Origin: Candidatus Bruticola sp.
GTDB lineage: Bacteria > Vulcanimicrobiota > Xenobia > Xenobiales > Xenobiaceae
Length of the DNA stretch: 64,000 nt
Reading direction: 5' to 3'
NCBI GenBank assembly: GCA_051874695.1
Contig: JBJEGC010000027.1
Coordinates: 18,582-82,581, forward strand
The position numbers and the translations under genes were made by a program. Position 1 is the stretch's first letter, and each line of letters starts with the position of its first letter. Shown one piece after another: positions 13,291 to 49,222 of this stretch. Below the pieces are notes generated by a model that saw nothing but the letters and a program-made list of their open reading frames with translations, searched no databases and was not told the DNA's origin.

Positions 13291-13296
13291 AACAGT

Positions 13297-30163: not shown

Positions 30164-30515
30164 GGTAACACCGCCTGCTTGCTGGCAACCAAAAGAAAAA
30201 GAGAAACTACTTCTGAACAGCGGTCATTTGTTAAAGTTTTGTCTGTTTTTTTTGTTGTCTGTAGGCTGCCCATTTGATAAAATGACTACGATACCGTGCG
30301 GCGTGCGGAGAACTCTGTTGAGTCTATTTGACGAATTAATTCAGCCGTTTTCGGGTTTGTCGTTGGCAAACTCCTTAGTTTTGCCTCTAAATTAGAAGCA
30401 AAGAGTCCGGCAGCGTTATCTTCACAAGTTGACTCCCGTTTTTCGCGGCAGTTCCTGAGGGTCGTGCAGTTTCATTGGCGCGGTGTTCTAATTTTTTTGA
30501 AGGGCGTTTTATATA

Positions 30516-31115
30516 ATGTCTATAAATTCCGTCAACTCTTTTGCTGGTACTTACAGTGCTTCCGCTCCTGTATGTAGCAAGGAGCAGACCAATGGCGAAG
30601 CTGCCGCAATTCAAGCAGAGCCGCAGGAAATGTTCGCTCTAAGTGAAGAGGGCAGCGATCCTATTCCTCAAAAACCCAATTTCGCTACTCGTGCAGTCCG
30701 CAATGTAGCCGGCGTAGTGACCGGTGCTATCGGAGCCGCCGCCGGAGCTACTAAAGGCGGTTTAGTCGGTGCTGCTGAGGGCAAGGTTAGCTTATCTCAC
30801 GATGCCAAAGTTGTTTTGCAGACTATTGGCGCTTCTGCTGGTTTAGTTGCAGGCTTAGCTGTCACTGGCGCAGTGGGTGGCCCGATCGCCCTGGTTGGCG
30901 GTTTGATTGCCGGTCCTTTGGTAGGCTCAATGGCCGGTGGAGTGGTAGGCGGTGCCGTTGAAGGGCTCGGATCTGCCTTGGTAGGTGCTGGTCCTGGTGC
31001 CGTTAGAGGTGCCAAGAAGGGCTTCGATATTGGTCGTACCGTAATTGACAAGATTGTGGCTAAAGATACCCCCGCTCCCCAAGACACCGATCAAACCAAG
31101 TCTGTCAGTAAATAG
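30516..31115 (+). CDS. Glycine-zipper (GxxxG repeat) membrane protein
   Basis: Ser/Asn-rich N-terminus, then about 120 aa of Gly/Ala/Val GxxxG repeats; has its own terminator. Confidence 0.8.
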   Translation: MSINSVNSFAGTYSASAPVCSKEQTNGEAAAIQAEPQEMFALSEEGSDPIPQKPNFATRAVRNVAGVVTGAIGAAAGATKGGLVGAAEGKVSLSHDAKVVLQTIGASAGLVAGLAVTGAVGGPIALVGGLIAGPLVGSMAGGVVGGAVEGLGSALVGAGPGAVRGAKKGFDIGRTVIDKIVAKDTPAPQDTDQTKSVSK

Positions 31116-31152
31116 GGCAGCGCTGTAGAAGTTTTTTTATTTGCAAATTTAT

Positions 31153-31187
31153 AAAGTCCCCCGACCGTTAGGCGAGGGACTTTTTTT
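31153..31187. terminator. Rho-independent terminator
   Basis: AAAGTCCC...GGGACTTTTTTT. Confidence 0.75.
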
Positions 31188-31255
31188 GTCGAAGTTTCGC
31201 TATTTTATTAGCTTATAATGTCGCTGTGTCATATTCTTTGCGACATTTTTAGCCT

Positions 31256-33112
31256 TTAGTTTGGCCCTACTTTATCGGTACCGTTAACAGATTCGGTTTC
31301 ATTAATAGATTCGGTGTTGTTAACAGATTCAAGTTTAGTTTTTAAAGCTTCGATGAACTTCTTTTCCTCGGGTTGCAGTTCCAAGCTATAGGCTTTATTG
31401 AACATAGCCAGGCTCTCTGCAATATGGTTTTTTTCCAGATAAAGTTGGCCCAGCACCAAGTATGGATATCCGTCTTGTGGGGCTTCTGCCGTCAAAGAAT
31501 TTATAGCCTGCTGCAGAGAGTCACTGTGGCTGCACTTGAAGGCACCGCGCATCCATTGAATTTTCAGCAGATAGCTGTCGGGTAGTCGATTGGCCAAAAA
31601 AGCAGCCGTGCTGTCCAGTTCTTCCCAAAGACGTTGATCGCTGCAAAATTGACAAATAGCTTCCGCCATAAAGTTGGGTAGAGGAGAAGACAAACGCTTC
31701 AGCTCTTTAGCGGCTGCAGGGCTTTGCATAGTAAAAATGTTCAAGAAGGCTTTGGCTTTTATAACGGCTTGGTGCTGCTCGGGCAATTGACCGAGCAAAT
31801 AGTCGGCCTCTTGCCAATTGTATTGAAAAATTGCCTGCCACGCCCGCATCATTTGGGCTGCCGGTTCTTTCATTTGGTTTAAATCTTGTATTTCGTTTTC
31901 GGTTAAGCGGTATTGACGAATCCATAACTCAGCTTTGTCGAGATTTTGAGGTTCGGTTTGTATTGACTGTTTGATTGTGGGCCAGTCTTGAACGTTTGAG
32001 AATGATGCTGTCGGTTCGGTTGGAGTTATGTTTTTGAAAGACGAAGCCAAACCGAGGTGGCTTCGCTGTTCGACCAGGTTGCTTTGGTAGTCAAGTATTT
32101 TGTGGCTGGCCTCGGCCTGCAGTGCTTCTGAAGACCACAAAGAGCCGTTAAGTTTGGTCGGAAGCAGAGTGGAGCCATCAGCTAAAGGCTCTTCCGAGGC
32201 TTGAACTCCTTTGCTGTCGTCGCCTATATACCAAACTATCAAGTTAGGATCGGTTTTGGCAAAACAGCTTTGGCGAGTGTAAGAATAGCGTCCCTGAGCC
32301 GGGTCGATGGGAACATATCCTAAGCTAGGACAGAAAACTTCGCACCAGGAGTGGGTCGCTCGTCCTTGAGGTTCGGAGGTACTCAAAAGCAATCCGCCGC
32401 TGATTCTGACTTTGAATCCGTTTAGTTGCAGCAGTTTGGCGGTAAGTAGGGCTGCATCGGCACATTGCAGACGCCGCTCTTTCAGCATGGAAGAGAAAGA
32501 AGTTTTGGCCTTATCCGAACCGTAGCTGAAGCCGGTGCGCATAAAATCGTAAACGGATATCAGCTTATACAGAACTGACTGCTGGCTTCCTATGGCTTTA
32601 GTGGCCAGTTTCTGTAGTTCTTCTTCGGCAGGCGAACTTGCTGCCAAAACTTCTTGCCAATAATCTGTTTTCAAGGGGTGGCATTCTACCGTTTTCTTGG
32701 CTGCTTTGGCCCAGTCTGTACGGCTGAAATTGTAAACTATGGCTTCGTTTTTTAGTATGGCCTGCTGATTAACTGTAAAATTTTCTCCCGGCTGTACTGT
32801 GAGTTTATCGTAGTGGGCGTAAGAGTTGCCAAATTCGTCGCGGCTCTGTCTGTCTGGCTTAGGAGTTAAGCTGAAATCGATAACCTCTTGTCTGGAGGGT
32901 CTGTTTTGCAAAAGGGGAATTTTTAAGGAGGCTCGGCAGGGATAGGTGTGTAAGTTCTTATAGCTTACGGTTAAAGTAATGCTGCGTTTAATACTTTCGC
33001 AATCTTCTATGGCTGGCAGCTGCGGAGTTTCTGACAGGTTATAAGTCATTCGGTAACCTGCCAGGCAGATCAGGGCAATTATAACGAATGTCAAAAACAA
33101 TTTACGAATCAT
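31256..33112 (-). CDS. Membrane-anchored transglutaminase-like protein with C-terminal TPR repeats
   Basis: N-terminal TM, D.FGN, and the catalytic triad motifs QCADAA / HSWCEV / PIDP. TPR-like PYLVLGQLYL...AMFNKAYSL. Probable start ATG 33112. Confidence 0.85.
   Translation of the reverse strand: MIRKLFLTFVIIALICLAGYRMTYNLSETPQLPAIEDCESIKRSITLTVSYKNLHTYPCRASLKIPLLQNRPSRQEVIDFSLTPKPDRQSRDEFGNSYAHYDKLTVQPGENFTVNQQAILKNEAIVYNFSRTDWAKAAKKTVECHPLKTDYWQEVLAASSPAEEELQKLATKAIGSQQSVLYKLISVYDFMRTGFSYGSDKAKTSFSSMLKERRLQCADAALLTAKLLQLNGFKVRISGGLLLSTSEPQGRATHSWCEVFCPSLGYVPIDPAQGRYSYTRQSCFAKTDPNLIVWYIGDDSKGVQASEEPLADGSTLLPTKLNGSLWSSEALQAEASHKILDYQSNLVEQRSHLGLASSFKNITPTEPTASFSNVQDWPTIKQSIQTEPQNLDKAELWIRQYRLTENEIQDLNQMKEPAAQMMRAWQAIFQYNWQEADYLLGQLPEQHQAVIKAKAFLNIFTMQSPAAAKELKRLSSPLPNFMAEAICQFCSDQRLWEELDSTAAFLANRLPDSYLLKIQWMRGAFKCSHSDSLQQAINSLTAEAPQDGYPYLVLGQLYLEKNHIAESLAMFNKAYSLELQPEEKKFIEALKTKLESVNNTESINETESVNGTDKVGPN
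31275..31330. repeat. Imperfect 18-bp tandem repeat (about 3 copies) encoding ESVNNT/ESINET/ESVNGT
   Basis: TTAACAGATTCGGTTTCA / TTAATAGATTCGGTGTTG / TTAACAGATTC. Confidence 0.7.
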
Positions 33113-33237
33113 TGTGTATCTGCTTTTGTGTTTAAGGTTGCCCTTTAGTCTAGCATAAAAAACGGCAAATTTGCCAAAATTAGAGGAAGCAGAGTACTTT
33201 GAGCTGAAGGCTGGGGCTCGTTTCCGGAGGAATAATT

Positions 33238-34119
33238 GTGAAATATTATTACTATTCTGCTGTAATAGCTGCGCTTTGGGCAGTAGCAACTGTTTGTCTT
33301 CCCTCTTTTGCTGCCGATGAAGGTACGGCGGTAAGCCCCACCAGCAAGAGTCATACCGGTGTAGATTCTGTAAGTATTTCCAAAGTTACACCGCGCACTT
33401 CAGCCGATGTGCCGCAGAATTGCCAATTACCTGTAGTTCTTCTGGCCGATTATCAGTTGCAGTCATCAAGCAGCGGTTTAATTAAAACTAGAGCTTTTAT
33501 CTGGTCGCCCAAGGATAAAAGTGGCTCCGGTTATAAAAAAGGACTTCGCCCTATTTCTGCCGTTATGCAGGCAGCAGTTAAAAAGGGCAGCGGAAGCGTA
33601 AAAGTAGCTTTCCCTCCCTTGGCTATGCCCGTTAAAGCCGATCCTCAAACTCAGTTAGTTATTGTATCCAGTTTACAAAATAGTGCTCAGAAAGAAGTGG
33701 CCTGGGGAAGCACTTACAACTTTGTGCGCGGCTCTATGATGTTAGCTAAGACTGCCGATAAAAGTCCGCGTTCAGCTATTACCGTTCTAGATTTCTCTCC
33801 CAAAGTAGGCACCCTTACGGTGGGCAAAACTCAAGAGTTTACCTATAAGTTCCAGTATAGCCTCAAAGATCAAGATTACGGCTTTGTCAACTTTGAATTG
33901 AAGAACGCTATGGATAGCTTTGAAACTAGCCCCTGGTACTGTGCGGCTGTGCCAGTTCCCAAAGGAGCAGGGGTTGTAAAGTATGTGTCCAGTAAATACT
34001 TTTTTCCGTACATGTATAAGTTTTATAAGATGCGTTTAGGCGTTTTATATCGTACCGAACCCTTAGGAGGTACGGTTGACGCCTTGTTTTACGGTGACTG
34101 GCAGCTTGCTTCTAACTAA
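33238..34119 (+). CDS. Secreted hypothetical beta-rich protein
   Basis: GGAGG RBS before GTG, signal peptide (SFA-AD), 293 aa. Confidence 0.8.
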   Translation: MKYYYYSAVIAALWAVATVCLPSFAADEGTAVSPTSKSHTGVDSVSISKVTPRTSADVPQNCQLPVVLLADYQLQSSSSGLIKTRAFIWSPKDKSGSGYKKGLRPISAVMQAAVKKGSGSVKVAFPPLAMPVKADPQTQLVIVSSLQNSAQKEVAWGSTYNFVRGSMMLAKTADKSPRSAITVLDFSPKVGTLTVGKTQEFTYKFQYSLKDQDYGFVNFELKNAMDSFETSPWYCAAVPVPKGAGVVKYVSSKYFFPYMYKFYKMRLGVLYRTEPLGGTVDALFYGDWQLASN

Positions 34120-34196
34120 AATATATTGAAATTTAGCTTCGCTTTTGTTACTATGCAATCAAATATATCTTTCTTTGTATTTTGGGAGGAAAGAGC

Positions 34197-34847
34197 ATGA
34201 ACATAGCCTTCGTTTTAAATTCTGCCGTGCTTTCTGCTGCTTGGCCTTCATTCAGCGATCGTATCGAACGAAAAGGTGAGGGCAGTGCTTGTCAGCTCGA
34301 TGGCGGGATTTTGCTGAATGTCGCCGCTGAAAAAGCTCTTTCTAAAGAAGTTAAGGCTGCCGATCAGTTAAAATATTCCGATTTGGTTCTTCCTGAAACC
34401 AGTTTTCATGTTCAGTCTGTCAGTTTGGTGCCCTCTATGCGTTCCAGAGTGAGTAAGGCTTTGCGCAATTTAGTAGACGGTTTTGAGTTGCCCCTTATGA
34501 GGCGTAGCGCCGTCTGGTCGGGGTGTTTCGCTGTACTGGCTTCCGTAATTCTGAGCGGCAGTCAGCCCGTCAGTGCCGAAACTATTCCCGTGTGTTCCAA
34601 GACCGCTGTTCAGTCTGTCAGTCCTATTCAAGGGCTGTTGGCTGCTACCGAGGTAGACCCTGTCAACCATGCTTTGCGCTTAGGCAGTGCTTGGGGATCC
34701 TATGCCGATGCAGATACCAGCCATACCAATATTCCTGCTCAGCATATCAATTTGCCTAACGGACAGCACAGCAACAGTTCTCACCTTCCGTTAGGAAACA
34801 AAGGACATACTCCTCAGGTTCCTCCGGTTACCGGAGCCGGAGTATAG
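34197..34847 (+). CDS. Putative RiPP precursor 1 (HxN repeats)
   Basis: GGAGG RBS before ATG 34197. Internal hydrophobic segment ending PVSA. C-terminal HTN, HIN and HSN. Confidence 0.6.
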   Translation: MNIAFVLNSAVLSAAWPSFSDRIERKGEGSACQLDGGILLNVAAEKALSKEVKAADQLKYSDLVLPETSFHVQSVSLVPSMRSRVSKALRNLVDGFELPLMRRSAVWSGCFAVLASVILSGSQPVSAETIPVCSKTAVQSVSPIQGLLAATEVDPVNHALRLGSAWGSYADADTSHTNIPAQHINLPNGQHSNSSHLPLGNKGHTPQVPPVTGAGV

Positions 34848-34912
34848 TCAAGCAACTGCTAAAAATAATACCAGGCTAATGCAGCCGCTCCATTTTCAGA
34901 AAGGCTATTTTT

Positions 34913-35470
34913 ATGAGACGATACAGGGTTGCCTTAGAGAAGGGAACTGAACTAAATAAAGAGTCGGAATATCTTCTGGAAAACCGCAATCGAGCTGTTA
35001 AGGTCAATTTGCTTTCCCGCTCTGGCTCCGATGGTCACGGCTTCGAGCTCTCCTTAATTTCTTCCAAGTGTTCTAAGTTGGCTGCTTGTGCTGCGGCGGT
35101 AGGGGCTGTTATTGCCGGTCCCGCTTTGCCAGCTGAGGCCGCTTCCTTTACGGTTTTGCCCGGTGCTCCGGCTCAGGCAGTTTCTTTGCACGAGTGTTTT
35201 GCCTATTCGGCGCTGCGCCCGTCTGGCAAGGAAATTGTTCTCGATAGTGCCGTTAAACTTGAGGCTCCTGTAGGCTTGCAGATTGCCCAGGCCAGTTATC
35301 ACACTAACGGCTCTACCCATGTGAACCAAACTCCTGTTCCGCACACTAATAGCGCCTGGAGCAATCACAGCAACACGGGCGGCCACTCTAATGGTGACTG
35401 GGCCAACCATGGTAATACCGCTTCCGGTACCGGCCATGTAAACTTAGTTCACGGCGATTTCTTATTCTAG
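34913..35470 (+). CDS. Putative RiPP precursor 2 (His/Trp-x-Asn repeats)
   Basis: C-terminal HTN, HVN, HTN, WSN, HSN, HSN, WAN, HGN, HVN, HGD. Shares the GFELxL motif and hydrophobic segment with the upstream gene. Confidence 0.7.
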   Translation: MRRYRVALEKGTELNKESEYLLENRNRAVKVNLLSRSGSDGHGFELSLISSKCSKLAACAAAVGAVIAGPALPAEAASFTVLPGAPAQAVSLHECFAYSALRPSGKEIVLDSAVKLEAPVGLQIAQASYHTNGSTHVNQTPVPHTNSAWSNHSNTGGHSNGDWANHGNTASGTGHVNLVHGDFLF

Positions 35471-35499
35471 GTTGCCGTCCATTTTAACGTAGTTTTTCG

Positions 35500-35532
35500 G
35501 GCTCGGCTCATACGGCTGAGCCGCCTTTTTTT
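35500..35532 (+). terminator. Terminator/stabilising hairpin between the precursor genes and the SPASM gene
   Basis: GGCTCGGC-TCATACG-GCTGAGCC followed by GCC and T7. Confidence 0.65.
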
Positions 35533-35597
35533 ATGCCTCTTCAGTCGGCCTCCCGTACTTTTTTTTCGTCCGATGCAGAGGCCGCGGAGGTTTTTCT

Positions 35598-36803
35598 ATG
35601 CTCAACCTGGTTGCTCCGGTCAGCTGCAATATTATTTTGGCTTCGAAAAGCTGTACGGCTGACGCCATGCTCAGTTCTCAAGAGTGGTCTAATATTTTAG
35701 AAAAGCTTGGAGCGGCCAACGAATTCAGGATTTACGGTTTTGAAAAGTGGTTTTCTCTCAGAAAAGAAGCCGGAGAGAATGCCGACGCTATTTTGGCTTT
35801 CTGGAAACATCTGGATAATTTTAAAAAGTGTTTCCATATTTATCTGGATGCCTCTTTAGCTCCCGAGGACTTCCCCCGTCAGTTGTGGGCTTCGCTTTTA
35901 AATTGTTCCTATTTGGGGAGTGTCGTTTTCTGTTTTTCCGGTCGGCATGCATTGACTGAGGAGCCCGGTTGGCCGCTCATGGAAGAGGCTTCAGCCGCTG
36001 GTTTCGATACTGGGGTATCAGTTTTGCTGACCGATTACAGCGCTTCCTGCATCGAAGAGTTGACCAATGAATCTCTCGATGGAGGAGCCTCGCTAGTTAT
36101 TTTTGAGCGTTTGTCTCCTCAGTTTTCCGAGCAGCTCTCTGCAGACAGTCTGCGCAGCAGTGCGGAACAAATAAAAGAACTGCGCCAGCTCGGTATGGAG
36201 GCCGCCATGAGCGGTTGCTTCCCCAACTGTTTTAGCAAGGGAGACATACCTTCTTGTCTGGCAGGAACGGTGAGCTGTGCCATTACTCCCGACGGCCTGC
36301 TTCGTCCTTGTCGCTATGCCGATAGCGCGGGTTGTTTAAGTCTTTTGCAGAATAGTTTAACTGAAGCCTGGCACAGCGAGGCTTTAACTGGCTGGCGTCA
36401 GATTAGTGCCGGGAGCTGTCAGGGCTGCAACAAATGCAACTTGTGTCCAGGGGGCTGTTTGCTTTATGCTTACTCCAGCAACGGCCAAAAAACTGATCCT
36501 TTAATTTCTGAAACTGAAGCTGAAGAGACTGTTTTGCAGGAAGTTACCTTGGAAGACGAGCTCTGTCCGGTGCCTTGTTACAATATTAGGGCCGAAGAAT
36601 TCGGTTGGCTTCTGATGCGCGGATCGAGAGTTGTTCCTGTCAGTTCTAAAGCGGCTGCAGTTTTGGCCCGTTTTGACGGTAAAACTACTTTAGGACAAAT
36701 AGAAGAAGAATTTGGCTCGGGAGCTTTGTCTTTTATTTACTCTCTGTATGTGCGTGGTTTCGCCGAGTTTAAAGAGAACTTGACGCCGGGCGGGGATAGC
36801 TGA
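35598..36803 (+). CDS. Radical-SAM-like protein lacking CxxxCxxC, with SPASM domain and C-terminal PqqD/RRE-like domain
   Basis: GGAGG RBS. SPASM motifs CLAGTVSCAITPDGLLRPC and CQGCNKCNLCPGGC. C-terminal AAVLARFDGKTTLGQIEEEF...FIYSLYVRGF is PqqD-like. Confidence 0.85.
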   Translation: MLNLVAPVSCNIILASKSCTADAMLSSQEWSNILEKLGAANEFRIYGFEKWFSLRKEAGENADAILAFWKHLDNFKKCFHIYLDASLAPEDFPRQLWASLLNCSYLGSVVFCFSGRHALTEEPGWPLMEEASAAGFDTGVSVLLTDYSASCIEELTNESLDGGASLVIFERLSPQFSEQLSADSLRSSAEQIKELRQLGMEAAMSGCFPNCFSKGDIPSCLAGTVSCAITPDGLLRPCRYADSAGCLSLLQNSLTEAWHSEALTGWRQISAGSCQGCNKCNLCPGGCLLYAYSSNGQKTDPLISETEAEETVLQEVTLEDELCPVPCYNIRAEEFGWLLMRGSRVVPVSSKAAAVLARFDGKTTLGQIEEEFGSGALSFIYSLYVRGFAEFKENLTPGGDS

Positions 36804-36851
36804 CTTTACCCACATTTTATAGTTTTAACCAATCTGAACGGGGAGCTGACA

Positions 36852-37313
36852 ATGAGGCGAACTTTAAGCCGCGATTTTATGGATTTGGTGCGCCATTTTG
36901 CCTATCATGAAAAACAGGTTCATGTTTATGGCGTAAAAGAACCTCTGTACCGCTCAGAAATTCATGTAGTTTGGTTGGTAGGGGCTGAGCCCGGCCTTTA
37001 CGGTCTGAAGCTAGCTAAAAAGATTGGCATTACTAAAAGTGCAGCTTCGCAAATTCTTTCTAAGCTAGAAAAAAGGGGCATGATTTCTAGCCGTGTGGCC
37101 GCTGATAAACTGACCAAACGGGAGTATACCCTAACTGAAGAGGGGTGGAAGGTTTTTGCTTTCCATGAGGAGTTGCATCGCGAATTTGAAAAACGTTTTA
37201 ATGCATTTTTAAGGAGATATACTCCCGAGCAGCGCAAATTTTTAAAAGGCTTTGTGCAAGATCTTAATAACGTGCTGAATCTTTGGTTCACCGACGATCT
37301 ATATATACTGTAG
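36852..37313 (+). CDS. MarR family transcriptional regulator
   Basis: SEIHVV, LAKKIGITKSAASQILSKLEKRGMI and YTLTEEG winged-helix motifs. Confidence 0.9.
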   Translation: MRRTLSRDFMDLVRHFAYHEKQVHVYGVKEPLYRSEIHVVWLVGAEPGLYGLKLAKKIGITKSAASQILSKLEKRGMISSRVAADKLTKREYTLTEEGWKVFAFHEELHREFEKRFNAFLRRYTPEQRKFLKGFVQDLNNVLNLWFTDDLYIL

Positions 37314-37333
37314 TAGTTGCAAAGCATTGACTT

Positions 37334-37383
37334 AAAGCATGACTGTTTATATGGCCACCATTATAACAGCTCATGCTTTTTTT
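37334..37383 (+). terminator. Rho-independent terminator after the MarR gene
   Basis: AAAGCATGACTGTT...AACAGCTCATGC-TTTTTTT. Confidence 0.7.
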
Positions 37384-37409
37384 CTATGTTAGGAAGCTAT
37401 GTTAGGAAG
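37384..37409. repeat. Perfect 13-bp tandem duplication upstream of the pilin operon
   Basis: CTATGTTAGGAAG x2. Confidence 0.85.
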
Positions 37410-37567
37410 CCCGATTTTATAAGTATTTTAAGGTTTTGGGGAGGAAAAACTTGGAAAATATTTAAGGTTTGCGCTATTATTATATAAAGGGTGTGTGAGG
37501 GCTTGGCGGCGCTTTAGAGCTTTTTCTATTCGAGCCATGCAAAAAAAGGAGAGGAAACTATCATAAT

Positions 37568-38143
37568 ATGCGTGTTTTAACCAGGCGTTCTAGGTCTTAT
37601 GCTTTTTCGTTAGCAGAGCTTATGGTAGTTATATCTGTAGCTTCGCTGCTCATTGCCATTGTGGCGCCGGCTTGGAATAGCTACAACACCCGTCTAATGG
37701 TGTTGACCAGTGCCAACGAAGTTGTAACTGAACTGCGCAATGCTCGTGAAAACGCTTTCCGTACTGGTACTTTTACATATTTCAGATATTCGGTTAAGAG
37801 CTCCAAGAAAAAGACGTACTATGCGTATCGTAGGAACACACGTTTGTCTAGCTTGGGTTTAACTAACGGTGTGCTTAATGGTAGTGCTGGCTGGGGTGGT
37901 ACTGAGATGACCGACTCATTGATCTCTAAAGTACGCACGCTGGATCGTAGGTGCGATTTTTATAGCAGTGCCACGGCTACCTCTGCCCTCAGTAGTGCTT
38001 ACCTTGAGTTTGAGAACGATGGTTCGGTGTCTGGTAAGTCTGGTTTTACAAAATCGGGCAACGATTATGTCATCTATGTCGGTTCCGGAGGTTACTGTGT
38101 GCCGATTACAGTTTCTCCTGTTGGGCGTATAACGGTAGGTTAA
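37568..38143 (+). CDS. Type IV minor pilin, FimT/FimU/GspH-like
   Basis: Class III signal RRSRSYA|FSLAELMVV, ELRNARENA, C-terminal ITVSPVGRI. Confidence 0.8.
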   Translation: MRVLTRRSRSYAFSLAELMVVISVASLLIAIVAPAWNSYNTRLMVLTSANEVVTELRNARENAFRTGTFTYFRYSVKSSKKKTYYAYRRNTRLSSLGLTNGVLNGSAGWGGTEMTDSLISKVRTLDRRCDFYSSATATSALSSAYLEFENDGSVSGKSGFTKSGNDYVIYVGSGGYCVPITVSPVGRITVG

Positions 38144-38145
38144 GC

Positions 38146-39021
38146 ATGAACAAGAACGTTAACTTTGCTGCACAGAAGAAAAAACGGGGCGTAGCTCTTA
38201 TCTCGGCCCTCTTTGTTTTAGTTATTATGGCGACTATTTGCGGTGGTTTTGTGTCTATCATGGCCCAGAGCAGTTCTGCTTCGCGCCGGGATGCCGAAGA
38301 GAGCATTCTGCTCTATACGGCTGAAGCTGGTCTAGAGTACGCCAAATGGTGTGTAAAGCACAATTTAACTTATTATCCGGTGCGCGATCTATATACCGCT
38401 TCTTCTTCCACCGTCCCCAGAATAAAGGCGGGTGGTCTTTACAATTTTTGGGGATCGAGTGCCTATTTCGCTTTTCCCGGTGCCGACGTCTCTTCTTCCA
38501 ATGTCGCTTCAATAGATTACCTGACCCGTCGCTACGAATATCTCTACTGGACCGATTTAAGTTACGAAAATCCGAATCAGAGCGGCCACAAAAATGTTTT
38601 TGACATAAACGGAGAAAAACGTTTTTTGACAACTTTCCAAATTTCGGTTGGTGTAGTTTGGGATAACGCTAAAACTAGTTCTACTTATAACAATGCTTCC
38701 ACTGTCAATTATGTAAGGGCTGTTGGCTCCTCCAGTGAGCGCGGCTTCCCTGTAGAATTAGTTTCTACAGCTAGGTTGTGGAGTCTGAAGGACAACGGTC
38801 AGCTCTACAACGCTTTTAATAATCAGAATAGCACCTATCAATTAAATTTGGTAGAAACGTCAAAACTTATTCAAGATTTGGGAGCCGTTCAGGAGGCCGC
38901 TCGTACTTTGCACTGCACCTTTATGCATGCAGTTAATGCCGATCAATATGTAAACAGCTATCCTAAACAAGATTATTACGATGTAAAAATGTTTAAAGAC
39001 TACAGGGATTTTGCGAGATGA
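38146..39021 (+). CDS. Type IV minor pilin, PilX/GspK-like
   Basis: KKKRG|VALISAL (no Glu5) and the PilX motif LYTAEAGLEYA. Confidence 0.85.
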   Translation: MNKNVNFAAQKKKRGVALISALFVLVIMATICGGFVSIMAQSSSASRRDAEESILLYTAEAGLEYAKWCVKHNLTYYPVRDLYTASSSTVPRIKAGGLYNFWGSSAYFAFPGADVSSSNVASIDYLTRRYEYLYWTDLSYENPNQSGHKNVFDINGEKRFLTTFQISVGVVWDNAKTSSTYNNASTVNYVRAVGSSSERGFPVELVSTARLWSLKDNGQLYNAFNNQNSTYQLNLVETSKLIQDLGAVQEAARTLHCTFMHAVNADQYVNSYPKQDYYDVKMFKDYRDFAR

Positions 39022-40460
39022 TTTGGATAAACAGAAACAAGCGTAGGCGCGGCGTCACTCTTATTGAAATCCTGGTAGCCGTAGCTATTTTGGCTATAGG
39101 TTTCGGAACCGTCTTTCAGGTGTTCCCTATGGGGTACGCGGCGGCAGCTAAAGGGAAAAATCTCAATATAGCTTACGAATTGGCGTCGCGTCGTTTGGAG
39201 GAAGCTCGGGGCTATGTGCTCTTTGGTGGTAATCCCACCAACGGTAATGCACTCTCTTCGTTTGCCTATTGGGGCAGCGGGGCGCCGGCTCCCGATGGGA
39301 CCACTTATAAGGCTGTCAGTACTAATGGCAATTTTGTGGCTTTCAGCACCTCCACCGCTCCAGAGAATAAGTACTTCTACAAGATAGACTGTCTGCCGGT
39401 AGTGGACAATCGCCGCCTCTATCTGGAGTTCCCGGCCAGGCGCACCGGCACTAAATCGCCCATCCACTATAACGGCAGTTATGCTGCGGCAACTGAAGTA
39501 GCCGATACGGCCAACGCCGGGTTCGCTTCTATGTTCCGCCTTACTGTAACGGTGCGCGGTCCGCTTCCCAGTGCCGATCTGGCGGCCGATGACGAGTTTG
39601 TCAACTATAGCGAAGGAGCTGTGGAGGCCATACTTTCCACTATGGTTTGCAATGAGAACTTAGGCGATGCTCTGTTAGCTTCCAACATGGTTTTGCGCAA
39701 CGCCAGCTACGGTAGAGTAGGCGATGACGCCACCGGCGGTTTGGCTGGAGTGGCCACCTATGCCGGAACTCCCAGACGCGGTCCGACTGTATCTAATTTG
39801 AACAAAGTTCTCATTAAAGGCTTTACTCAAACTAATCCTCACCCCGAGAATTTTACAGTTCTCAACGTAGCGAACTTAACACCTACCGAATTGGCCGACA
39901 CCGGACCCAGCATATTGGATAGTGCCGGGGCCGCTGCTGTGGGGCGCAGCCGCTTCGCCAACGATGCCTACTACGATCCTAGTTACGGTAAGTACAACCC
40001 TTATTATAAAGATAAAACGGGCAGCCAGTTCTCTGCTCAAGAACTTATTGAAACTAACATTCTCGGTTTAGATAACGTAATGATTTACTCTCCGTCTTTA
40101 GCTGTAGGCGGCTCTACTTACAAGCATAGCGCTTGTTCCTGGACTGGTGGCGGCTGGATTGCCGAGAGCAATAAAATTCATCGTCTGTTGCCGCCTGGAG
40201 CCGGCGGTAACCCCAGCAGCAGTTATTGGTGCCTGGAGTTGGTTAACGATCTTATCGGTCGCGACGGCGATTCTCCCAGCAAGGCGGGAGCTGCTCTTAT
40301 GGATATGAAGTTTGATGGCGACATCTATTTGGGGAGCAGCACCGTTGTTGGCTACACGGCTGGCAGCTGCGATTCCAGCGGTAACGTTTTTGGCACCAGG
40401 GTTCGCACCTTAGTGCGCATTGAGGCCGGTAAGAACTACAACAGCGTTTTGAAGTATTAG
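39018..40460 (+). CDS. Type IV minor pilin, PilV/GspI-like, with a large C-terminal extension
   Basis: RRRG|VTLIEILVAVAIL and AYELASRRLEE; 480 aa. Confidence 0.85.
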   Translation: MIWINRNKRRRGVTLIEILVAVAILAIGFGTVFQVFPMGYAAAAKGKNLNIAYELASRRLEEARGYVLFGGNPTNGNALSSFAYWGSGAPAPDGTTYKAVSTNGNFVAFSTSTAPENKYFYKIDCLPVVDNRRLYLEFPARRTGTKSPIHYNGSYAAATEVADTANAGFASMFRLTVTVRGPLPSADLAADDEFVNYSEGAVEAILSTMVCNENLGDALLASNMVLRNASYGRVGDDATGGLAGVATYAGTPRRGPTVSNLNKVLIKGFTQTNPHPENFTVLNVANLTPTELADTGPSILDSAGAAAVGRSRFANDAYYDPSYGKYNPYYKDKTGSQFSAQELIETNILGLDNVMIYSPSLAVGGSTYKHSACSWTGGGWIAESNKIHRLLPPGAGGNPSSSYWCLELVNDLIGRDGDSPSKAGAALMDMKFDGDIYLGSSTVVGYTAGSCDSSGNVFGTRVRTLVRIEAGKNYNSVLKY

Positions 40461-40489
40461 TTAAGGGCGTAACGGCAGGGAGGCTCACT

Positions 40490-41230
40490 ATGAATATGAG
40501 GTTTAACGGTTTGCGGTCTAACGCATCGAGGCAACGTGGCTTTACTTTGGTGGAGCTGCTTATAGCCATAGCCATGTTTTCGCTCTTTACTTTAACTCTC
40601 ACGCAGCTGCTGATGGGTGGCATCGATGCCTTTAAGCGCGGTCAGGTTATTACAACTTTAAAGAGCGATGTGAAATCCTGTCTGACTCAAATTGAATCCG
40701 ATTTGCGTTTTGCCAACAGTCGGTCTTCTTTTACTGACCCTGTTTATACTTCTGGGAATCAGTCTTTGTCAGCTTCTTTCTACCGTTTTCCTGCCAGAGA
40801 TATTGACTGGACGGTTGACGGATCAACTTCCACTTATAAGGTGGATTATACTATTGATAAAGAGGGCGATACCTATGTGCTGAACTACGCTAAGAAAAGC
40901 GGTACTAAGTACAAGATGATTGATAATGTTATGCTCTCTACGGTGCCGGGCCAAGCTGGTACTTCTGGCAATTACAACAGTTACTTCCAGTGGGGACGCG
41001 TCAGTTATGGAAGCAATATTAATACCGTTCCCGAAGATGTAATGAATGTGCGCTTAACCAGCGGACGCTATTTGGGCAAGGAAATTCTGACCATGACCAT
41101 GTCTAGCGCAGTAGCTGTGCGCACTCCTGTAAGTTGTTCCAACATGAAAGCCAGCGGCGGTATCCGTACTCAGTCTGTTGAGCTTCTGCCTTTCGAAGTG
41201 AACCTGCGGGCCGGTTCTGTGTCGTTTTAA
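40490..41230 (+). CDS. Type IV minor pilin, PilW/GspJ-like
   Basis: RQRG|FTLVELLIA and LTQIESDLRFA. Confidence 0.87.
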   Translation: MNMRFNGLRSNASRQRGFTLVELLIAIAMFSLFTLTLTQLLMGGIDAFKRGQVITTLKSDVKSCLTQIESDLRFANSRSSFTDPVYTSGNQSLSASFYRFPARDIDWTVDGSTSTYKVDYTIDKEGDTYVLNYAKKSGTKYKMIDNVMLSTVPGQAGTSGNYNSYFQWGRVSYGSNINTVPEDVMNVRLTSGRYLGKEILTMTMSSAVAVRTPVSCSNMKASGGIRTQSVELLPFEVNLRAGSVSF

Positions 41231-41328
41231 GAAAAACTGTATGAAAAAGAGCTTGCTGGGGTAGTTCCTGATAGGCAGTATGAGAATATTGCTGGCATAG
41301 GGTAGCTGCCGTACAGGAGTGCGACAAG

Positions 41329-41378
41329 AAAAAAAAGGCGATACCTAGTTTTTATAACCAGGTATCGCCTTTTTTTTT
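41329..41378 (+). terminator. Rho-independent terminator of the pilin operon
   Basis: A8-GGCGATACCT...AGGTATCGCC-T9. Confidence 0.85.
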
Positions 41379-41654
41379 CTTCACAAAATGTTTGAATTTT
41401 ATTGGAAGTACATATGGCCCAGGAGCTTAACTATGTTCGAATAAAATATGGCAATTATATTTTTCTCGATACTATTGAGAAGGTTGAAAAGCGGCTGGTT
41501 ACAACGCAAGCTTTTATGTCTTTTATAAAGACAGCCCAAATAACAAAGTAATACTTAAATTATTTGAAACTATAAAAATATTACAGTTGAACACAGTTAC
41601 TTTGTGGAAGAAAATTTTTACTATGTAGATTTGAAGGAATTGTATTTAAGTTAT

Positions 41655-41688
41655 AAAGAGAGCCTGCCGAACCGGCAGGCTCTCTTTT
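41655..41688 (-). terminator. Terminator of the metal ABC operon
   Basis: AAAGAGAGCCTGCCG-AAC-CGGCAGGCTCTCTTT perfect stem. Confidence 0.8.
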
Positions 41689-41693
41689 GTCTA

Positions 41694-42497
41694 TTAGTTT
41701 GTCTGGCGCAAACGTTTTATTATCAGGGATATGACCAGAAATGAGCAAGTAACGGCTGTTATGGAAGCGCTGGTAGGTAAATCGTAACGGACGGAAAGGG
41801 CTACTCCTGTAAAGACCGAGGCTAAAGCGGAAATTAGGGAAGTAGCACAAACCCACCGCCAGCGGTGACTCAAGCATAAGCCGGTCAGCGGAGGTACAAT
41901 CAACATGGCAAAAACCAGCAGAGCACCGGCACTGTGTATAGCGACAGCTATAGCCAAACCTACTGTAAAGTAAAATAGCCAGTTCCAAAACTTCACATTA
42001 TACCCCAGAGCCTGAGCCATCATAGGATCGAATGAAGTCAGCATAAACTGTTTAAAAAACAGTGCACTTACGATCACAATAAAGGCCAGCGAACCTGTCA
42101 TTAGGTAAATGTCGGTTGAGGTAACGGCCAGCACGTTGCCGAAGAGCAGGCTGAGCATATCACTGTCAGCGTGAGGAGACAGGGCTATAAACAGTACTGC
42201 CGCCGCTCCGGCGGCAACATAAGCGCTGCCTATAAGTCCTTCGGAAGGGAGGCCCTGCCGATGATCTTTGGCAAAAAATGTCACACCTCCCAGCATAAGA
42301 ATAACTGCCCCCAAACTGCAGGGAATGTGGAGCAGACCGCTCATAGCAATACCGGCAGTAGCCAGCTGAGCGAGGGCCACTCCTACAAAGGTTATGCGGC
42401 GCAGTACAGTCAGTACTCCCAAATAGGCAGTCATTAAAGCGGTTAAAGAGGCCGAAAGCAGGGCTAAAGAAGTAAAATCTAAATTATCAATAGACAT
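41694..42497 (-). CDS. znuB: Zn/Mn ABC transporter permease
   Basis: LGVLTVLRR, LLFGNVL, SFDPMMA and GALLVFAMLIVP (ABC-3 family). Confidence 0.9.
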   Translation of the reverse strand: MSIDNLDFTSLALLSASLTALMTAYLGVLTVLRRITFVGVALAQLATAGIAMSGLLHIPCSLGAVILMLGGVTFFAKDHRQGLPSEGLIGSAYVAAGAAAVLFIALSPHADSDMLSLLFGNVLAVTSTDIYLMTGSLAFIVIVSALFFKQFMLTSFDPMMAQALGYNVKFWNWLFYFTVGLAIAVAIHSAGALLVFAMLIVPPLTGLCLSHRWRWVCATSLISALASVFTGVALSVRYDLPTSASITAVTCSFLVISLIIKRLRQTN

Positions 42498-42536
42498 ATT
42501 TTCTCTCAGAAAAAATAAGGCAGGGCCGATTTACGA

Positions 42537-43283
42537 TCATTTATTCCAATGGATGGGGCGTCCGAAAAGTTTGCTCAAATATTGAGAAGTAAATATTTCT
42601 TTAGGTTCGCCCCAACTGACGGTGCGGCGGCCGTTGCTATCGGCGTGAAAAATGCCGACAATTTGTGCATGTTCGGCTACTATCTCCAACATGTGGGTCA
42701 CGATAACTACTGTCATGCCTTGCTGATGCAACCGGGAGACTATTTCTAAAGTATCTTGGCTGGCTCCTAAGTCCATGCCGTTAGTCGGTTCGTCCAGAAG
42801 GAGCACTTGAGGCTTAGAAACTAGGGCCCGGGCCATAAGCACTCGTTGTAACTGGCCGCCGGAAAGGGCGCTGATGTGAGCATCGGAGCGGTCGGCCAAA
42901 TTTACCTGTTCCAAAGCTTCTTTTACGGCTTGGCGGTCTTCTGAGGAAGGGCGGAAGCGATAACCCATTTGGGCGTAACGCCCCATAAGTACAGTATCAA
43001 ATACGGAAAGGGGAAACGAAGTTTCTAAAGTTTGATGCTGGGGCATGTAGCCCAATCCTTCCAAACGACGTTGTTCTTGGCTTGAACGGTCAAAGAATTT
43101 AATTTGGCCGATTACAGGTTTTAGAGCTCCCACCAATCCTTTTAATAAAGTAGATTTGCCGACGCCGTTTGAGCCTACTAAGCCTATATATTTTCCTCTT
43201 TCCAAAGAAAAATTGAGCCCTTCCAATATGGGGCGGCCGCCGTAGCCTAAACTTACTTGGCTAAATTCTGCAAATGTAGCCAT
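42537..43283 (-). CDS. znuC: Zn/Mn ABC transporter ATPase
   Basis: GSNGVGKST, GYMPQ, LSGGQLQR and LLDEPT motifs. Confidence 0.9.
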   Translation of the reverse strand: MATFAEFSQVSLGYGGRPILEGLNFSLERGKYIGLVGSNGVGKSTLLKGLVGALKPVIGQIKFFDRSSQEQRRLEGLGYMPQHQTLETSFPLSVFDTVLMGRYAQMGYRFRPSSEDRQAVKEALEQVNLADRSDAHISALSGGQLQRVLMARALVSKPQVLLLDEPTNGMDLGASQDTLEIVSRLHQQGMTVVIVTHMLEIVAEHAQIVGIFHADSNGRRTVSWGEPKEIFTSQYLSKLFGRPIHWNK

Positions 43284-43284
43284 G

Positions 43285-44217
43285 TTATTTCAAAGCCTTA
43301 GCCAGTTGATTAACGTTATACTCCATCATATCTAAGTAGGTGGAAGTATTGGGCAAGCTTCCAGGCTGAATGGGCAGTTTCAAAGCGGAAGCTCCAGATT
43401 TCTGAGCGACAGAGTTAGGCAGGTTTTCAGGGTACCAAGGCTCAAAAACTATAACTTTAACTTTGGAGCCTTTCATTAGTTCAACCAGTTCATTGAGCTG
43501 GCGGCTGGAAGGAGATACGCCGGGTTTAGGTTCAATGTTGCCGCATACTTTTAAGCCGAAATGAGCGGCAAAGTAGCTCCAAGTGCTGTGGTAAGTAACA
43601 ATATTGCTGCCGGCATAAGGTTTTAATATAGCTTTCCAACGTTTGTCAGCCTGATCTATTTTATGCCAGTAAGCGCTGTAATTTTTATCGTAAATAGCCG
43701 AACCTTCCGGATCGAGACGTTTGAAGAAGGCGGTCATAGTTCTGGCTACATGTTTTACATTGGTGGGGTTGAGAGTGTAGTGAGGATTGCCGTCAGGGTG
43801 AGCGTCGCCGCGGGAGCGATCTACTTTGCCGCTCGGTTTGTCCATAACTTTAATGCCTGCGCTGGCTTCCAAAAAGTTGGGTTGTCCGGGCATAATTTTA
43901 GGATTGCGGGCGCTGCGCAGTAAACTGGGGGCCCAGCCTATTTCCAAAGAGAGACCGGTTTCAATAAAGGCATCGGCTTGCTGTAATGCACGCAGATAGC
44001 TGGGCTTAGTTTCGACAAAATGCGGATCCTGGCCACCTTTAGCTATACAGGTAACTTTCACGCGTGAGCCGCCTATCTGGCGGGCAATGTCGGCCAAATC
44101 GGGAGTAGTTACAGCTACATTTAAAGTTTTGTCGGCTAATACAGGCTGCGAAAACCAGAAAGCCGTGCATAGAGCTATTAAGAGAACGCACCAAACAGAA
44201 GTTTTAGACATAAACAA
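43285..44217 (-). CDS. znuA: Zn/Mn ABC substrate-binding protein (cluster A-I)
   Basis: Metal-ligand motifs QDPHF, HPDGNPHY, TYHSTWSY and EPKPG. Confidence 0.9.
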   Translation of the reverse strand: MFMSKTSVWCVLLIALCTAFWFSQPVLADKTLNVAVTTPDLADIARQIGGSRVKVTCIAKGGQDPHFVETKPSYLRALQQADAFIETGLSLEIGWAPSLLRSARNPKIMPGQPNFLEASAGIKVMDKPSGKVDRSRGDAHPDGNPHYTLNPTNVKHVARTMTAFFKRLDPEGSAIYDKNYSAYWHKIDQADKRWKAILKPYAGSNIVTYHSTWSYFAAHFGLKVCGNIEPKPGVSPSSRQLNELVELMKGSKVKVIVFEPWYPENLPNSVAQKSGASALKLPIQPGSLPNTSTYLDMMEYNVNQLAKALK

Positions 44218-44249
44218 TGCTCCTTTGCTTATTTACTGCCATAATAAAA

Positions 44250-47866: not shown

Positions 47867-49129
47867 ATGTCTAATACATTAGCAATGATTATGGCTGGAG
47901 GGGGCAGTCCCGGCCTAAGCGTGCTTACCGAAGTTCGCGCCGATGCTGCTGTAGAGTTCGCCGGTAAGTTCTGCCTGATCGATTTTCCACTCTCCAACTG
48001 CGTAAACTCCGACATTTACAATGTGGCCGTTCTGACTCAGTACCGCCCGCAAACGCTCAATACTCATATCGGAACTGGTACTCCTTGGGATCTGGACCTA
48101 AATCAGGGTGGCGTGCATTTGCTGCAGCCCTACAAAGGCGGAATCTACGGAGATTGGCAAAAGGGCACAGCCGATGCCGTGCGCCGCAATCTCGATTTTA
48201 TAATGGCGCAAAGTGAAGAGTACGTTTTAATTTTGTCCGGTGATCACATCTACTCGATGGATTACCGTCCCTTAATTAATGCTCACATTGCCAATAATGC
48301 CGATATTACCATTTGTGTGCGCAATGTGAACAGTTTTGACGCTCATCGTTACGGAATGTTGTTAGTCAACAATGATCAGCGAGTATACGGCTACGAAGAA
48401 AAGCCGAAACGCTCTCGCAGTTGTTTGGCCAATATGGGCATTTACGTTTTCCGTAAAGATTTCTTAGTGAAAATTTTAACCGAACATGAAATGAATGACT
48501 TCGGACGCGATCTGCTTCCTTACGTAATCAACAATCATTATCGCGTGTTCAGTTACTATTTCCCCGGTTACTGGGCCGATGTCGGCAATATTCAGTCGTA
48601 TTGGGAAGCCAATATGAGCTTGCTGGCTGAGGAACCTGCTCTCGATCTTTATGATAACGGCTGGGTAATTCATACCCGTTCTATGGATCAGGCTCCTGTG
48701 CGTATTGGCAATCAGGCTAAAGTTGCTGACAATATCCTTTCTAACGGATGTCAGATAGACGGCGAAGTCTGTCGCAGTGTTATCTCTTCGGGGGTCATTA
48801 TCGAAGAGGGAGCAGTAGTAAAAAATAGCATTCTCATGCGCGGCGTCTATGTGAAAAGAGGCTGTGTGATTGACCGCTGTATTATCGATTGTGACTGCGT
48901 AATTGGTGAGAACTGTCAAGTTGGCACCGGTGAAGATATTGTGCCTAATAATGAAATGCCGGGCGTTTTGAATACAGGTCTTACCGTTATAGGACGAGGT
49001 CGCACTTTAGCTCCTGGAACTGTAGTCGGACGCTCAGTAATTATTCACCCTTCTCACGGTGTGCGGCGTGCTCCCGAAATAACCGGTGAAATCGCCAGTG
49101 GAGCCAGCATAGGCGAAGCCGAGCGTTAG
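47867..49129 (+). CDS. glgD: ADP-glucose pyrophosphorylase paralog, probable non-catalytic GlgD-like subunit
   Basis: GlgC-like throughout, but GEGSRL is replaced by GGSPGL and RAKPAV by RADAAV. Confidence 0.75.
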
Positions 49130-49160
49130 CTATTTTACATTGTGCTCTAGGGCTTAAATG

Positions 49161-49201: not shown

Positions 49202-49222
49202 ATTTGGTATAGGGTGCGAATG

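Follow-up and report, generated by a model that had tools for sequence, protein, structure and literature searches.

What do two neighbouring proteins with tails full of His-x-Asn and Trp-x-Asn triads do next to a gene that resembles a radical S-adenosylmethionine (rSAM) maturase? This question is raised by positions 34197-36803 of a 64,000-nucleotide stretch (hereafter the window) of contig JBJEGC010000027.1 of Candidatus Bruticola sp., whose genome of 2.49 Mb is 96.6% complete. The locus consists of three co-directional genes, the ATG of each preceded by a Shine-Dalgarno-like sequence: two tandem open reading frames (ORF1 and ORF2) coding for the proteins that we call HxN-1 and HxN-2, and a gene for a 401-aa protein with a SPASM domain, called here the enzyme (35598-36803). 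A preliminary description of the same DNA proposed a system for a peptide made by ribosomes and modified after translation (RiPP), in which unusually long precursors would yield a poly-crosslinked product or, alternatively, a His-rich one that binds metal. Our analysis leads us to a different reading. On balance, we think that the locus is a three-gene core, made of two paralogous HxN-tail proteins and a maturase-like protein, within a larger envelope module, and that the enzyme would now be a pseudoenzyme and the tails would be exported.

The enzyme carries the argument. Its SPASM domain scores above the cut-offs of curated models (PF13186, 25.2 bits versus 21.5; TIGR04085, 31.2 versus 27) and it displays the seven-cysteine motif CX9-15GX4C ... 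CX2CX5CX3C ... C, with strings at C220-C238 and C274-C287. The cysteines C207, C211, C220, C238, C274, C277, C283, C287 and C323 are present in 26-27 of the 27 distinct family members. The radical SAM part is very different. The CxxxCxxC triad binds the SAM-cleaving [4Fe-4S] cluster and every radical SAM enzyme needs it; no such triad exists in the 401-aa sequence, nor does one emerge from its alignments to two metagenome homologues, P0019 and P0020. These are 34% identical to the window protein over 92-98% of the query and carry CNSRCPGC and TGGEP. Facing them, the window enzyme has a gap of ~15 residues that coincides exactly with CNSRCPGC, and its YGFEKW takes the place of the TGGEPT of intact relatives, that is, GFE instead of GGE. 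Because both the triad and the GGE SAM-binding motif are absent, the protein should be unable to make the 5'-deoxyadenosyl radical, and it is in all likelihood inactive as an rSAM enzyme. A frameshifted or truncated gene was considered and dropped: the open frame reaches only 26 codons further 5', and the N-terminus ML.L..P is kept in all homologues. Nor is the gene decaying as a whole, since the SPASM cysteines are kept and the ratio of non-synonymous to synonymous substitution rates (dN/dS) is ~0.11 in the N-terminal domain, ~0.12 in SPASM and ~0.07 in the C-terminal recognition domain, values that are rough, like all our dN/dS figures, as dS is near saturation. The predicted structure retains the partial triosephosphate isomerase (TIM) barrel core of radical SAM proteins. 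Its mean predicted local distance difference test score (pLDDT) in AlphaFold2 is 73.5, with block means mostly of 83-96 over the beta/alpha repeats of residues 11-170 and lower values beyond, and its top Foldseek matches are PqqE (6c8v, E 6.6e-11), SuiB, SkfB, BlsE and anSME (E 6.6e-11 to 4.7e-6).

The loss is not peculiar to this genome. All 10 homologues of the Xenobia family are devoid of the triad, and scans of public genomes and metagenomes provided 35 further loci. The 27 distinct full-length enzymes comprise four intact forms, three with a Cx4CxxC motif, four that are Cys-less but have GGE, and 16 with the deletion. A maximum-likelihood tree rooted with other rSAM/SPASM proteins of the window's genome places the intact forms at the base, with the degenerate ones nested; it joins the Cys-less and deleted clades as sister groups (support 84/85) and shows L038 as a second, separate loss within the Cx4CxxC clade. 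Intact enzymes are found only in basal relatives (L014, L015, L016, L019, P0019 and P0020). The module very probably descends from an rSAM maturation system, as judged from this phylogeny, and in that sense the RiPP-like origin proposed in the preliminary description stands; what falls is the active maturase in this genome. A single tree that contains intact, Cx4CxxC, Cys-less and deleted forms, with SPASM cysteines, recognition domain and tails kept, makes an unusually clean pseudoenzyme case, in which one can ask what a SPASM protein with a recognition domain does once radical SAM chemistry is gone. In a 301-genome sample of the phylum, a profile of the C-terminal domain matches 25 genomes belonging to 16 of 100 genera, and none of the 207 genomes in the largest family sampled. 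Four records of metagenome-assembled genomes (L036, L040, L047 and L032) are labelled Burkholderiales, Riflebacteria or Bacillota. Since the enzymes of these records nest inside Xenobia-type clades, the labels probably reflect errors of binning or naming.

The second line of evidence comes from the tails. Every triad listed in the preliminary description is present: HTN, HIN and HSN at nt 34722, 34743 and 34767 of ORF1 and, from nt 35300 to 35435 of ORF2, HTN, HVN, HTN, WSN, HSN, HSN, WAN, HGN and HVN, followed by HGD at 35450. When the whole 2.49-Mb genome was scanned, with 5674 stop-to-stop frames no shorter than 80 aa, ORF2 had nine H/W-x-N triads within 60 aa, the runners-up having four (two frames) and three (seven frames, including ORF1). 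This density is far above chance. Conservation of the tails in related genomes, which the preliminary description proposed to check, is confirmed. Every H, W and N of the ORF2 tail is kept in six close homologues (63-100% identity), the remaining protein being variable. Across an alignment of 16 diverse homologues from several genera and metagenomes (23-85% identity to ORF2), conservation peaks at the H and N positions; M1, L33, E45 (the Glu of FEL), H144/N146, H166/N168, H175/N177 and D182 are invariant, and H136, N138, H158, G181 and A76 (in the A-x-A site) nearly so. Within the genus, dN/dS is ~0.008 for the ORF2 tail versus ~0.21 for its leader and linker, which indicates extreme purifying selection on the tail; in ORF1 it amounts to 0.24 in the N region, 0.05 in the middle and 0.07 in the tail. 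The two proteins are paralogues, given that an ORF2 profile detects ORF1-type proteins at about 1e-6 (ORF1 itself at E 1.3e-6).

A profile search of 1.84 billion cluster representatives retrieved only 69 relatives, of which 47 at E <= 1e-10; among the 68 inspected, five or more H/W-x-N triads occur in 63, and the C-terminus reads [G/A]-D-x-x-[F/Y/W] in 37. The number of triads grows in other genera, up to 31 in one open frame (L035, the same protein as L010). Known families are of little help. Pfam yields no family at E <= 0.1 for either ORF, NCBIfam has no row for ORF1 and, for ORF2, only ribosomal protein S10 (17.6 bits versus a cut-off of 85, taken as chance), and neither the ESM Atlas nor structure searches gave a usable match for ORF2. 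The HxN proteins constitute a small family of His/Trp-x-Asn repeat proteins, in all likelihood exported, that is undescribed and absent from curated collections. In its 60 residues, the ORF2 tail holds ten His, two Trp and ten Asn, and neither Lys nor Arg, a composition that suggests metal or glycan binding. N-glycosylation sequons at the triads were considered and dropped on direct reading of the sequence, N-x-S/T following only some of them. One might also regard the tails as low-complexity filler devoid of specific function, adjacent to the SPASM gene by inherited synteny only, as the predicted disorder of ORF2 and its lack of family, ESM Atlas or structure matches would allow. This is hardly credible in view of H and N positions that stay invariant over 23-85% identity, which contradicts the idea, of a tail dN/dS of ~0.008 against 0.21 for the rest of ORF2, and of a linkage to the enzyme gene that survives changes in gene order and accompanies strict co-occurrence (see below).

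Several peculiarities of these repeats were noticed along the way. In a high-GC genus (L035 6645-7883, identical to L010 145-1383; L022 and L023), the HxN units look regular, with ~15 residues and the form PHTNTFTPHSN..GT, and the ORF1-type partner has up to 25 'AHxNT' units. In L016, the open frame 5' of the HxN-2 start runs through His codons (6187-6290, HHHHRHHH), and the ORF1-type protein of the same locus has a C-terminal run of eight Pro.

The linkage between tails and enzyme, also suggested earlier as a check, is confirmed too. An HxN-tail ORF lies directly 5' of the enzyme gene in 22 of the 25 distinct loci with at least 400 nt upstream, and the three loci without it (L032, L033 and L038) all belong to the Cx4CxxC clade. 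This count leaves out L017 and L026 (<150 nt upstream) and nine loci with an enzyme match that begins at the end of a contig; four loci, L042, L043, L044 and L048, are duplicates of L005, L006, L003 and L004. HxN proteins precede the enzyme in all four intact-enzyme loci, the basal relatives also possessing paired HxN proteins, and therefore the association is older than the decay of the enzyme. Among 41 related genomes, 13 have both genes, none has HxN only, two have the enzyme only (G011 and G012, each cut by a contig end) and 26 have neither, counts that are descriptive only and overstate the evidence, as related genomes are not independent. The module is patchy even within one genus, where it occurs in six of ten genomes, including that of the window (G000). 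Two of the intact-enzyme loci have an additional gene of ~295 aa between HxN-2 and the enzyme (L015 7053-7949 and L016 7036-7917), with a weak DUF483 match (E 6.6e-6), which is absent from the window's module.

With these data at hand, the cross-linking proposed in the preliminary description can be weighed. It would make the 401-aa SPASM protein itself the enzyme that cross-links the H/W-x-N triads of two long precursors, in the manner of triceptide synthases, which form three-residue cyclophanes. According to PMC11499958, the latter act on aromatic-X-X triads, some of which contain His (HTK, HAA and HNR) and yield histidine cyclophanes. The HxN locus shares with the systems of HtkB, HaaB and YhhB a core of repeated aromatic-X-X triads, His among them, beside an rSAM/SPASM-type gene. 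The core motifs are there (nine plus HGD in ORF2, three in ORF1), invariant and linked to the enzyme gene; the basal homologues are intact rSAM/SPASM enzymes; and between precursor and enzyme genes a terminator-like hairpin with a T7 tail was found as announced, the centroid structure being the hairpin, with a folding energy that is ordinary versus shuffles (z -0.37). However, an active maturase is not encoded in the window. The loss of CxxxCxxC and GGE is common to all 16 distinct deletion-type sequences, the window's contig (C27) has no PF04055 match, and among triceptide maturases NCBIfam offers a single match, to YhhB (NF041707), with an E value of 0.038 over 35 residues of the SPASM part, with no curated triceptide model going beyond it. 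The HxN proteins are also long (185-216 aa), paired and, by prediction, exported through signal-like segments, unlike the short triceptide precursors described in PMC11499958, and the recognition domain of their enzyme is C-terminal. A cross-linked HxN/WxN product made by the window enzyme is consequently unlikely, with the ~15 residues holding the triad gone, and activity of this protein as a triceptide-like synthase seems to us scarcely probable; the co-expression suggested in the preliminary description, if made with the three genes of this genome, would probably leave the masses unchanged. Whatever chemistry acts on the H-x-N triads, or on the aromatic C-terminus that is conserved, could be learned from the intact-enzyme relatives (P0020, L015, L016 and L019 types).

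The best-conserved part of the window enzyme is its C-terminal domain, which is 59-71% identical to that of homologues that are 32-46% identical overall to the first sequence of the alignment. The PqqD likeness reported in the preliminary description is weaker than the SPASM assignment made with it, as both matches are sub-threshold (TIGR03859, E 0.083; PqqD 3g2b, top of a profile search of the PDB, E 0.16). AlphaFold2 predicts four short strands (322-348), three helices (350-385) and a final strand, at moderate pLDDT, and the ESM Atlas has no usable match for residues 305-401. RiPP recognition elements such as PqqD combine a three-stranded sheet with three helices and bind a leader peptide. 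A predicted complex of the enzyme with residues 1-56 of ORF2 scores 0.53, versus 0.06 for the best of three controls; this lends weak support to an interaction. Of 80 solved complexes, 58 passed the mark, as did two of 110 mismatched pairs; passing scores of 0.60 or less came from only seven of the 80 solved complexes plus both passing mismatches. Agreement between runs extends to at least 37% of contacts, with a partner pLDDT of at least 36.

A domain of this kind could serve another enzyme. The tails might be modified by an rSAM enzyme encoded elsewhere in the genome, with the pseudoenzyme acting as a leader-binding adaptor, like PqqD for PqqE. Conservation within the protein is highest in the recognition domain, the tail dN/dS of ~0.008 fits a substrate still needing recognition, and there is no shortage of candidates, with 33 PF04055 matches elsewhere in the genome and four other SPASM proteins on contigs C17, C20 and C22. 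One locus, L021, even has a separate 340-aa rSAM gene inside the module (1337-2359, minus strand), with a 44% identical homologue in the window's genome (C22:54567-55511). Yet this gene has no counterpart in any other fetched locus, where only weak matches to the family enzyme itself appear, and the flanks of 13 degenerate-clade loci contain no second rSAM gene, four opposite-strand frames with chance-looking CxxxCxxC being taken as spurious. We therefore regard modification by a distant rSAM enzyme as decidedly improbable. Elsewhere in the same genome, contig C17 (about 8993-17860) carries three rSAM genes, two of them with SPASM, and contig C12 (about 47995-52866) four; these may be separate peptide-maturation loci.

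The organization of the HxN proteins is informative about where their tails might act. ORF1, ORF2 and their homologues have a common plan, with a conserved start (M-[R/K]-x-[Y/F]-[R/K]-V-x-L in the ORF2 type), a strand-like V-x-V-x-L motif, the motif [F/W/Y]-E-[L/I]-x-[L/F], a hydrophobic stretch of ~20 residues with basic residues before it and A-x-A after it, a variable linker and the tail. The hydrophobic segments reach Kyte-Doolittle values of 1.56 and 1.85 (19-residue window) in the two proteins. The AlphaFold2 model of ORF2, based on a 16-row alignment, is disordered (mean pLDDT 42.5) except for a helix over the hydrophobic stretch. In our reading of this plan, an extended cytoplasmic part precedes a Sec-type signal or anchor, which would place the tail outside the cytoplasm. 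Hydropathy, charge and the A-x-A site make it likely that the HxN proteins are exported, and the unusually long precursors of the preliminary description, whose lengths of 185-216 aa hold, look rather like exported proteins with a signal-peptide-like segment after a long N-terminal extension. The hydrophobic segment was also considered as a prepilin-type signal, and this was dropped, the Glu being at +2 of FEL and several homologues having 5-20 residues between the motif and the stretch.

The closest known system is HXS, an antiphage system that comprises a 214-aa effector, HxsA, with a signal peptide and five HxS repeats, two rSAM/SPASM enzymes and HxsD, with export to the periplasm (PMC13128918). 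Both have a His-x-X repeat 'precursor' of ~200 aa with an export signal beside rSAM/SPASM-type maturase genes, and maturation in the cytoplasm followed by action in the envelope, which for the HxN system is a proposal. The differences are numerous: the repeats here are H/W-x-N rather than HxS, in a tail without basic character; two paralogues occur, whose signal-like segment comes after an extension of 50-100 aa instead of at residues 1-22 as in HxsA (PMC13128918); no peptidoglycan-binding domain was detected; and a single enzyme with a fused C-terminal recognition domain and no rSAM triad takes the place of two rSAMs and HxsD. The window proteins have no match to the HXS models HxsA-D (TIGR03976-03979) at E <= 0.1, and by these models do not belong to HXS. 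The HxN module adds to a theme recognised of late, that of rSAM/SPASM enzymes whose substrates are protein-sized, exported and rich in His-x-X repeats; HXS is its known case.

By analogy, the module might be an envelope barrier against phages, with a repeat effector that is matured in the cytoplasm, exported and active on incoming phage DNA. Besides the features of HxsA just listed (size, signal peptide, HxS repeats, rSAM/SPASM maturation and periplasmic export; PMC13128918), the patchiness of the module within the genus and its loss as a block, as often seen for accessory defence genes, would fit this idea. Against it, the rSAM activity required in HXS is missing here; the ORF2 tail, devoid of Lys and Arg, argues against an HXS-like electrostatic binding of DNA, unlike the basic HxS repeats said to bind it; the intact homologues score 52-70 bits against HxsC, whose cut-off is 267.9; and ORF1, ORF2, the enzyme and the neighbouring protein X have no PADLOC match at E <= 0.1 in version 2.0.0 of 2023, which predates the HXS paper. 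A defence function of this type is very unlikely in our opinion.

Other SPASM families are comparable in part only. PqqE/PqqD and the mycofactocin proteins MftC/MftB resemble the window enzyme by the best fold match and the PqqD-like domain. For the intact homologues, PqqE and MftC (82-101 bits) are among the best NCBIfam matches, with the heme b synthase AhbD close; the cut-offs are 381 for PqqE and 265 for MftC. The window protein, at 17.6 bits for PqqE and 28 bits for MftC, is far under these equivalog cut-offs. Here, in contrast, the PqqD-like part is fused C-terminally, the substrates are unrelated to PqqA or MftA and the window copy is catalytically degenerate. MftA is modified at its C-terminal Val-Tyr, and HxN-2 likewise ends in an invariant aromatic residue. 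A curated pseudo-SAM/SPASM family (TIGR04347) also combines an rSAM-like N-terminus without Cys triad and an intact SPASM domain in a peptide-maturation-like context, as does the SPASM partner of the grasp-with-spasm system. TIGR04347 is nonetheless another family: only the intact L016 homologue matches it (35 bits versus 525), with no match for the window protein, and in the HxN family the intact ancestors and the decay series are visible in one tree. By curated models, the window enzyme and its intact relatives lie outside the Hxs, triceptide, PqqE and MftC families. Our literature searches retrieved no paper pairing 'HxN' with 'radical SAM', supplementary lists of triceptide precursors not being covered, and nothing on an HxN-linked enzyme family under pseudo-SAM plus SPASM or SPASM proteins lacking the radical SAM part with a C-terminal RiPP recognition element (RRE); by its title, PMC13692751 concerns thioether cross-links that a SPASM rSAM enzyme makes in proteins. 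The HxN module can be described as an uncharacterised family, a variant of the rSAM/SPASM-associated His-x-X repeat protein systems in which the maturase is here a pseudoenzyme, and which is tied to a pilin-like cassette (see below).

How might such a module work? Comparison indicates that the maturase-like protein descends from a genuine radical SAM/SPASM enzyme that matured peptides or proteins and had a PqqD-like recognition domain fused at its C-terminus. In the window lineage, the loss of the triad and GGE would, from established radical SAM enzymology, have abolished formation of the 5'-deoxyadenosyl radical. The relic could then serve as a cytoplasmic Fe-S-containing binder, escort or holdase for the N-terminal extensions (VxVxL ... 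[F/W/Y]-E-L-x-L) via its PqqD-like domain. The HxN proteins would be exported through their internal signal-peptide-like segment and cut after A-x-A, leader and signal being removed together; such a cleavage would explain why no dedicated protease or transporter gene is needed, and none is encoded. The released disordered tails might act unmodified in the envelope through their H-x-N triads, most likely by binding a metal or another ligand, metal binding being also the alternative that the preliminary description offered. That the tails of this genome are indeed unmodified and bind a metal or other ligand is a tentative proposal, to which we give somewhat less than even chances.

A number of points weigh against the reading of a pseudoenzyme with exported tails, besides the non-independence of the genomes and the near saturation of dS mentioned above. 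Tail conservation is equally strong in lineages with intact enzymes, so the tails may be conserved as a substrate, and their modification could come from one of the 33 PF04055 proteins encoded elsewhere. Asn is an unusual metal ligand, and metal binding is something that we infer for the tails. The recognition domain is assigned from two sub-threshold matches and a predicted topology, the Pfam PqqD model matching none of 11 C-terminal domains of family members even at E <= 10, and the complex prediction, with its weak support, does not provide a given interface. Finally, the hydrophobic segment could be a membrane anchor or no membrane segment at all.

The locus is embedded in a larger block, which the preliminary description did not consider (Table 1).

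Table 1. Features of the HxN module and its surroundings in the window
Feature	Position (nt)	Strand	Evidence and remarks
Accessory block of ~10.65 kb with the whole module	31085-41736		blastn synteny versus congeners G007 and G005
Transglutaminase-like protein, 677 aa, tetratricopeptide repeat (TPR) region, N-terminal hydrophobic anchor	31256-33289	-	PF01841, E 1.2e-9; divergently oriented from protein X
Protein X, 293 aa, signal-peptide-like segment at residues 8-26, without known family	33238-34119	+	
HxN-1 (ORF1), 216 aa from ATG	34197-34847	+	FELPL nt 34482-34496; hydrophobic segment nt 34506-34562; tail triads from nt 34722
HxN-2 (ORF2), 185 aa	34913-35470	+	Leader residues 1-52 with VKVNL and FELSL (nt 35042-35056)
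HxN-2 (ORF2), further parts	Hydrophobic segment 35078-35134, ending AEA; linker; tail 35279-35467	+	C-terminal GDFLF
Intrinsic-terminator-like hairpin between HxN-2 and enzyme gene	35500-35531	+	9-bp stem, 6 G-C pairs, T7 tail
Enzyme residues 1-205, radical SAM-like partial barrel without CxxxCxxC or GGE	35598-36212	+	Alignments, AlphaFold2, Foldseek
Enzyme residues 206-300, SPASM domain, full cysteine set	36213-36497	+	PF13186 and TIGR04085 above cut-offs
Enzyme residues 301-401, PqqD/RRE-like C-terminal domain	36498-36803	+	Most conserved part of the protein
MarR-family regulator	36852-37313	+	PF01047, E 1e-7
Four pilin-like genes, prepilin-type N-terminal motifs	37568-41230 (37568-38143, 38146-39021, 39018-40460, 40490-41230)	+	N_methyl, GspH/GspK/PilV-like and Verru_Chthon cassette D-like matches
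ZnuABC-type metal uptake operon (ABC-3 permease, ABC ATPase, ZnuA-like binding protein)	41694-44217	-	Just past the pilin genes

The limits of this block are visible in two congeners, G005 and G007, which are 95-96% identical to the window in the flanking nucleotidyltransferase. In G007, 30445-31084 runs straight into 41737-45386, all of 31085-41736 being missing. In G005 both halves of the block are missing and only the MarR stretch 36842-37312 is left between the flanks. Two separate deletions, on either side of a MarR gene that stayed, suggest that the halves are kept or lost together. The association also extends beyond the genus. Protein X and three or four pilin-like homologues stand beside the HxN and enzyme genes in loci of three enzyme clades and in two gene orders; the pilin-like genes, linked to them in L018, L021, L022-24, L034, L035, L037, L041 and L046, are downstream in the window, L041 and L046 and upstream in the others. 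Homologues of protein X occur near the enzyme in L046, L021, L032, L018 and L041, and in the distant locus L018 a transglutaminase-like homologue lies beside X. The 480-aa pilin-like protein was found in four of five module-positive and none of five module-negative genomes tested, protein X in none of the same five module-negative genomes, and the transglutaminase-like protein was not found in G005, G006 and G007. The three intact-enzyme loci with long flanks, L015, L016 and L019, have no X or pilin homologues within ~8 kb upstream and 1-8 kb downstream.

This co-inheritance gives a possible context to the tails, which might work together with the four-gene pilin-like cassette, the secreted protein X and the transglutaminase-like protein; that they are tied to a pilin-like cassette, in a gut-associated lineage on which few studies exist (Candidatus Bruticola, Vulcanimicrobiota), hints at a possible role on the cell surface. 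More speculatively, the HxN proteins may form an undescribed class of exported repeat proteins whose dedicated maturase became, repeatedly, a SAM-independent, SPASM-only Fe-S protein that continues to recognise leaders; in its derived form, the class would have been recruited to a minor-pilin cassette, helping to build or decorate a metal- or ligand-binding structure of the envelope or pilus tip. We consider this full scenario rather unlikely; if true, it would offer a natural series of a RiPP-type maturase turning into a pseudoenzyme chaperone, with its former substrate under extreme constraint.

The MarR gene that interrupts the block is another matter. In L046 and L041 no such gene separates enzyme and pilins. 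MarR is probably native to the adjacent ZnuABC locus rather than to the module, and would regulate the Znu genes, because it stays beside them in G005, which does not have the module. It has a weak match (30.5 bits, far under the cut-off) to AdcR-like, zinc-dependent MarR proteins. A zinc link of the module via MarR and ZnuABC was examined and dropped: G005, which has lost the module, still has MarR, and in other genera the module includes neither MarR nor ZnuABC. Protein X has no Pfam family at E <= 0.1 and a single NCBIfam row (MarC transporter, 15.6 bits versus 162) that we take as chance. Its C-terminus, FYGDWQL (FYGDWNL in L046 184-1149), resembles the GD-aromatic end of HxN-2 (GDFLF), a similarity that may be due to chance.

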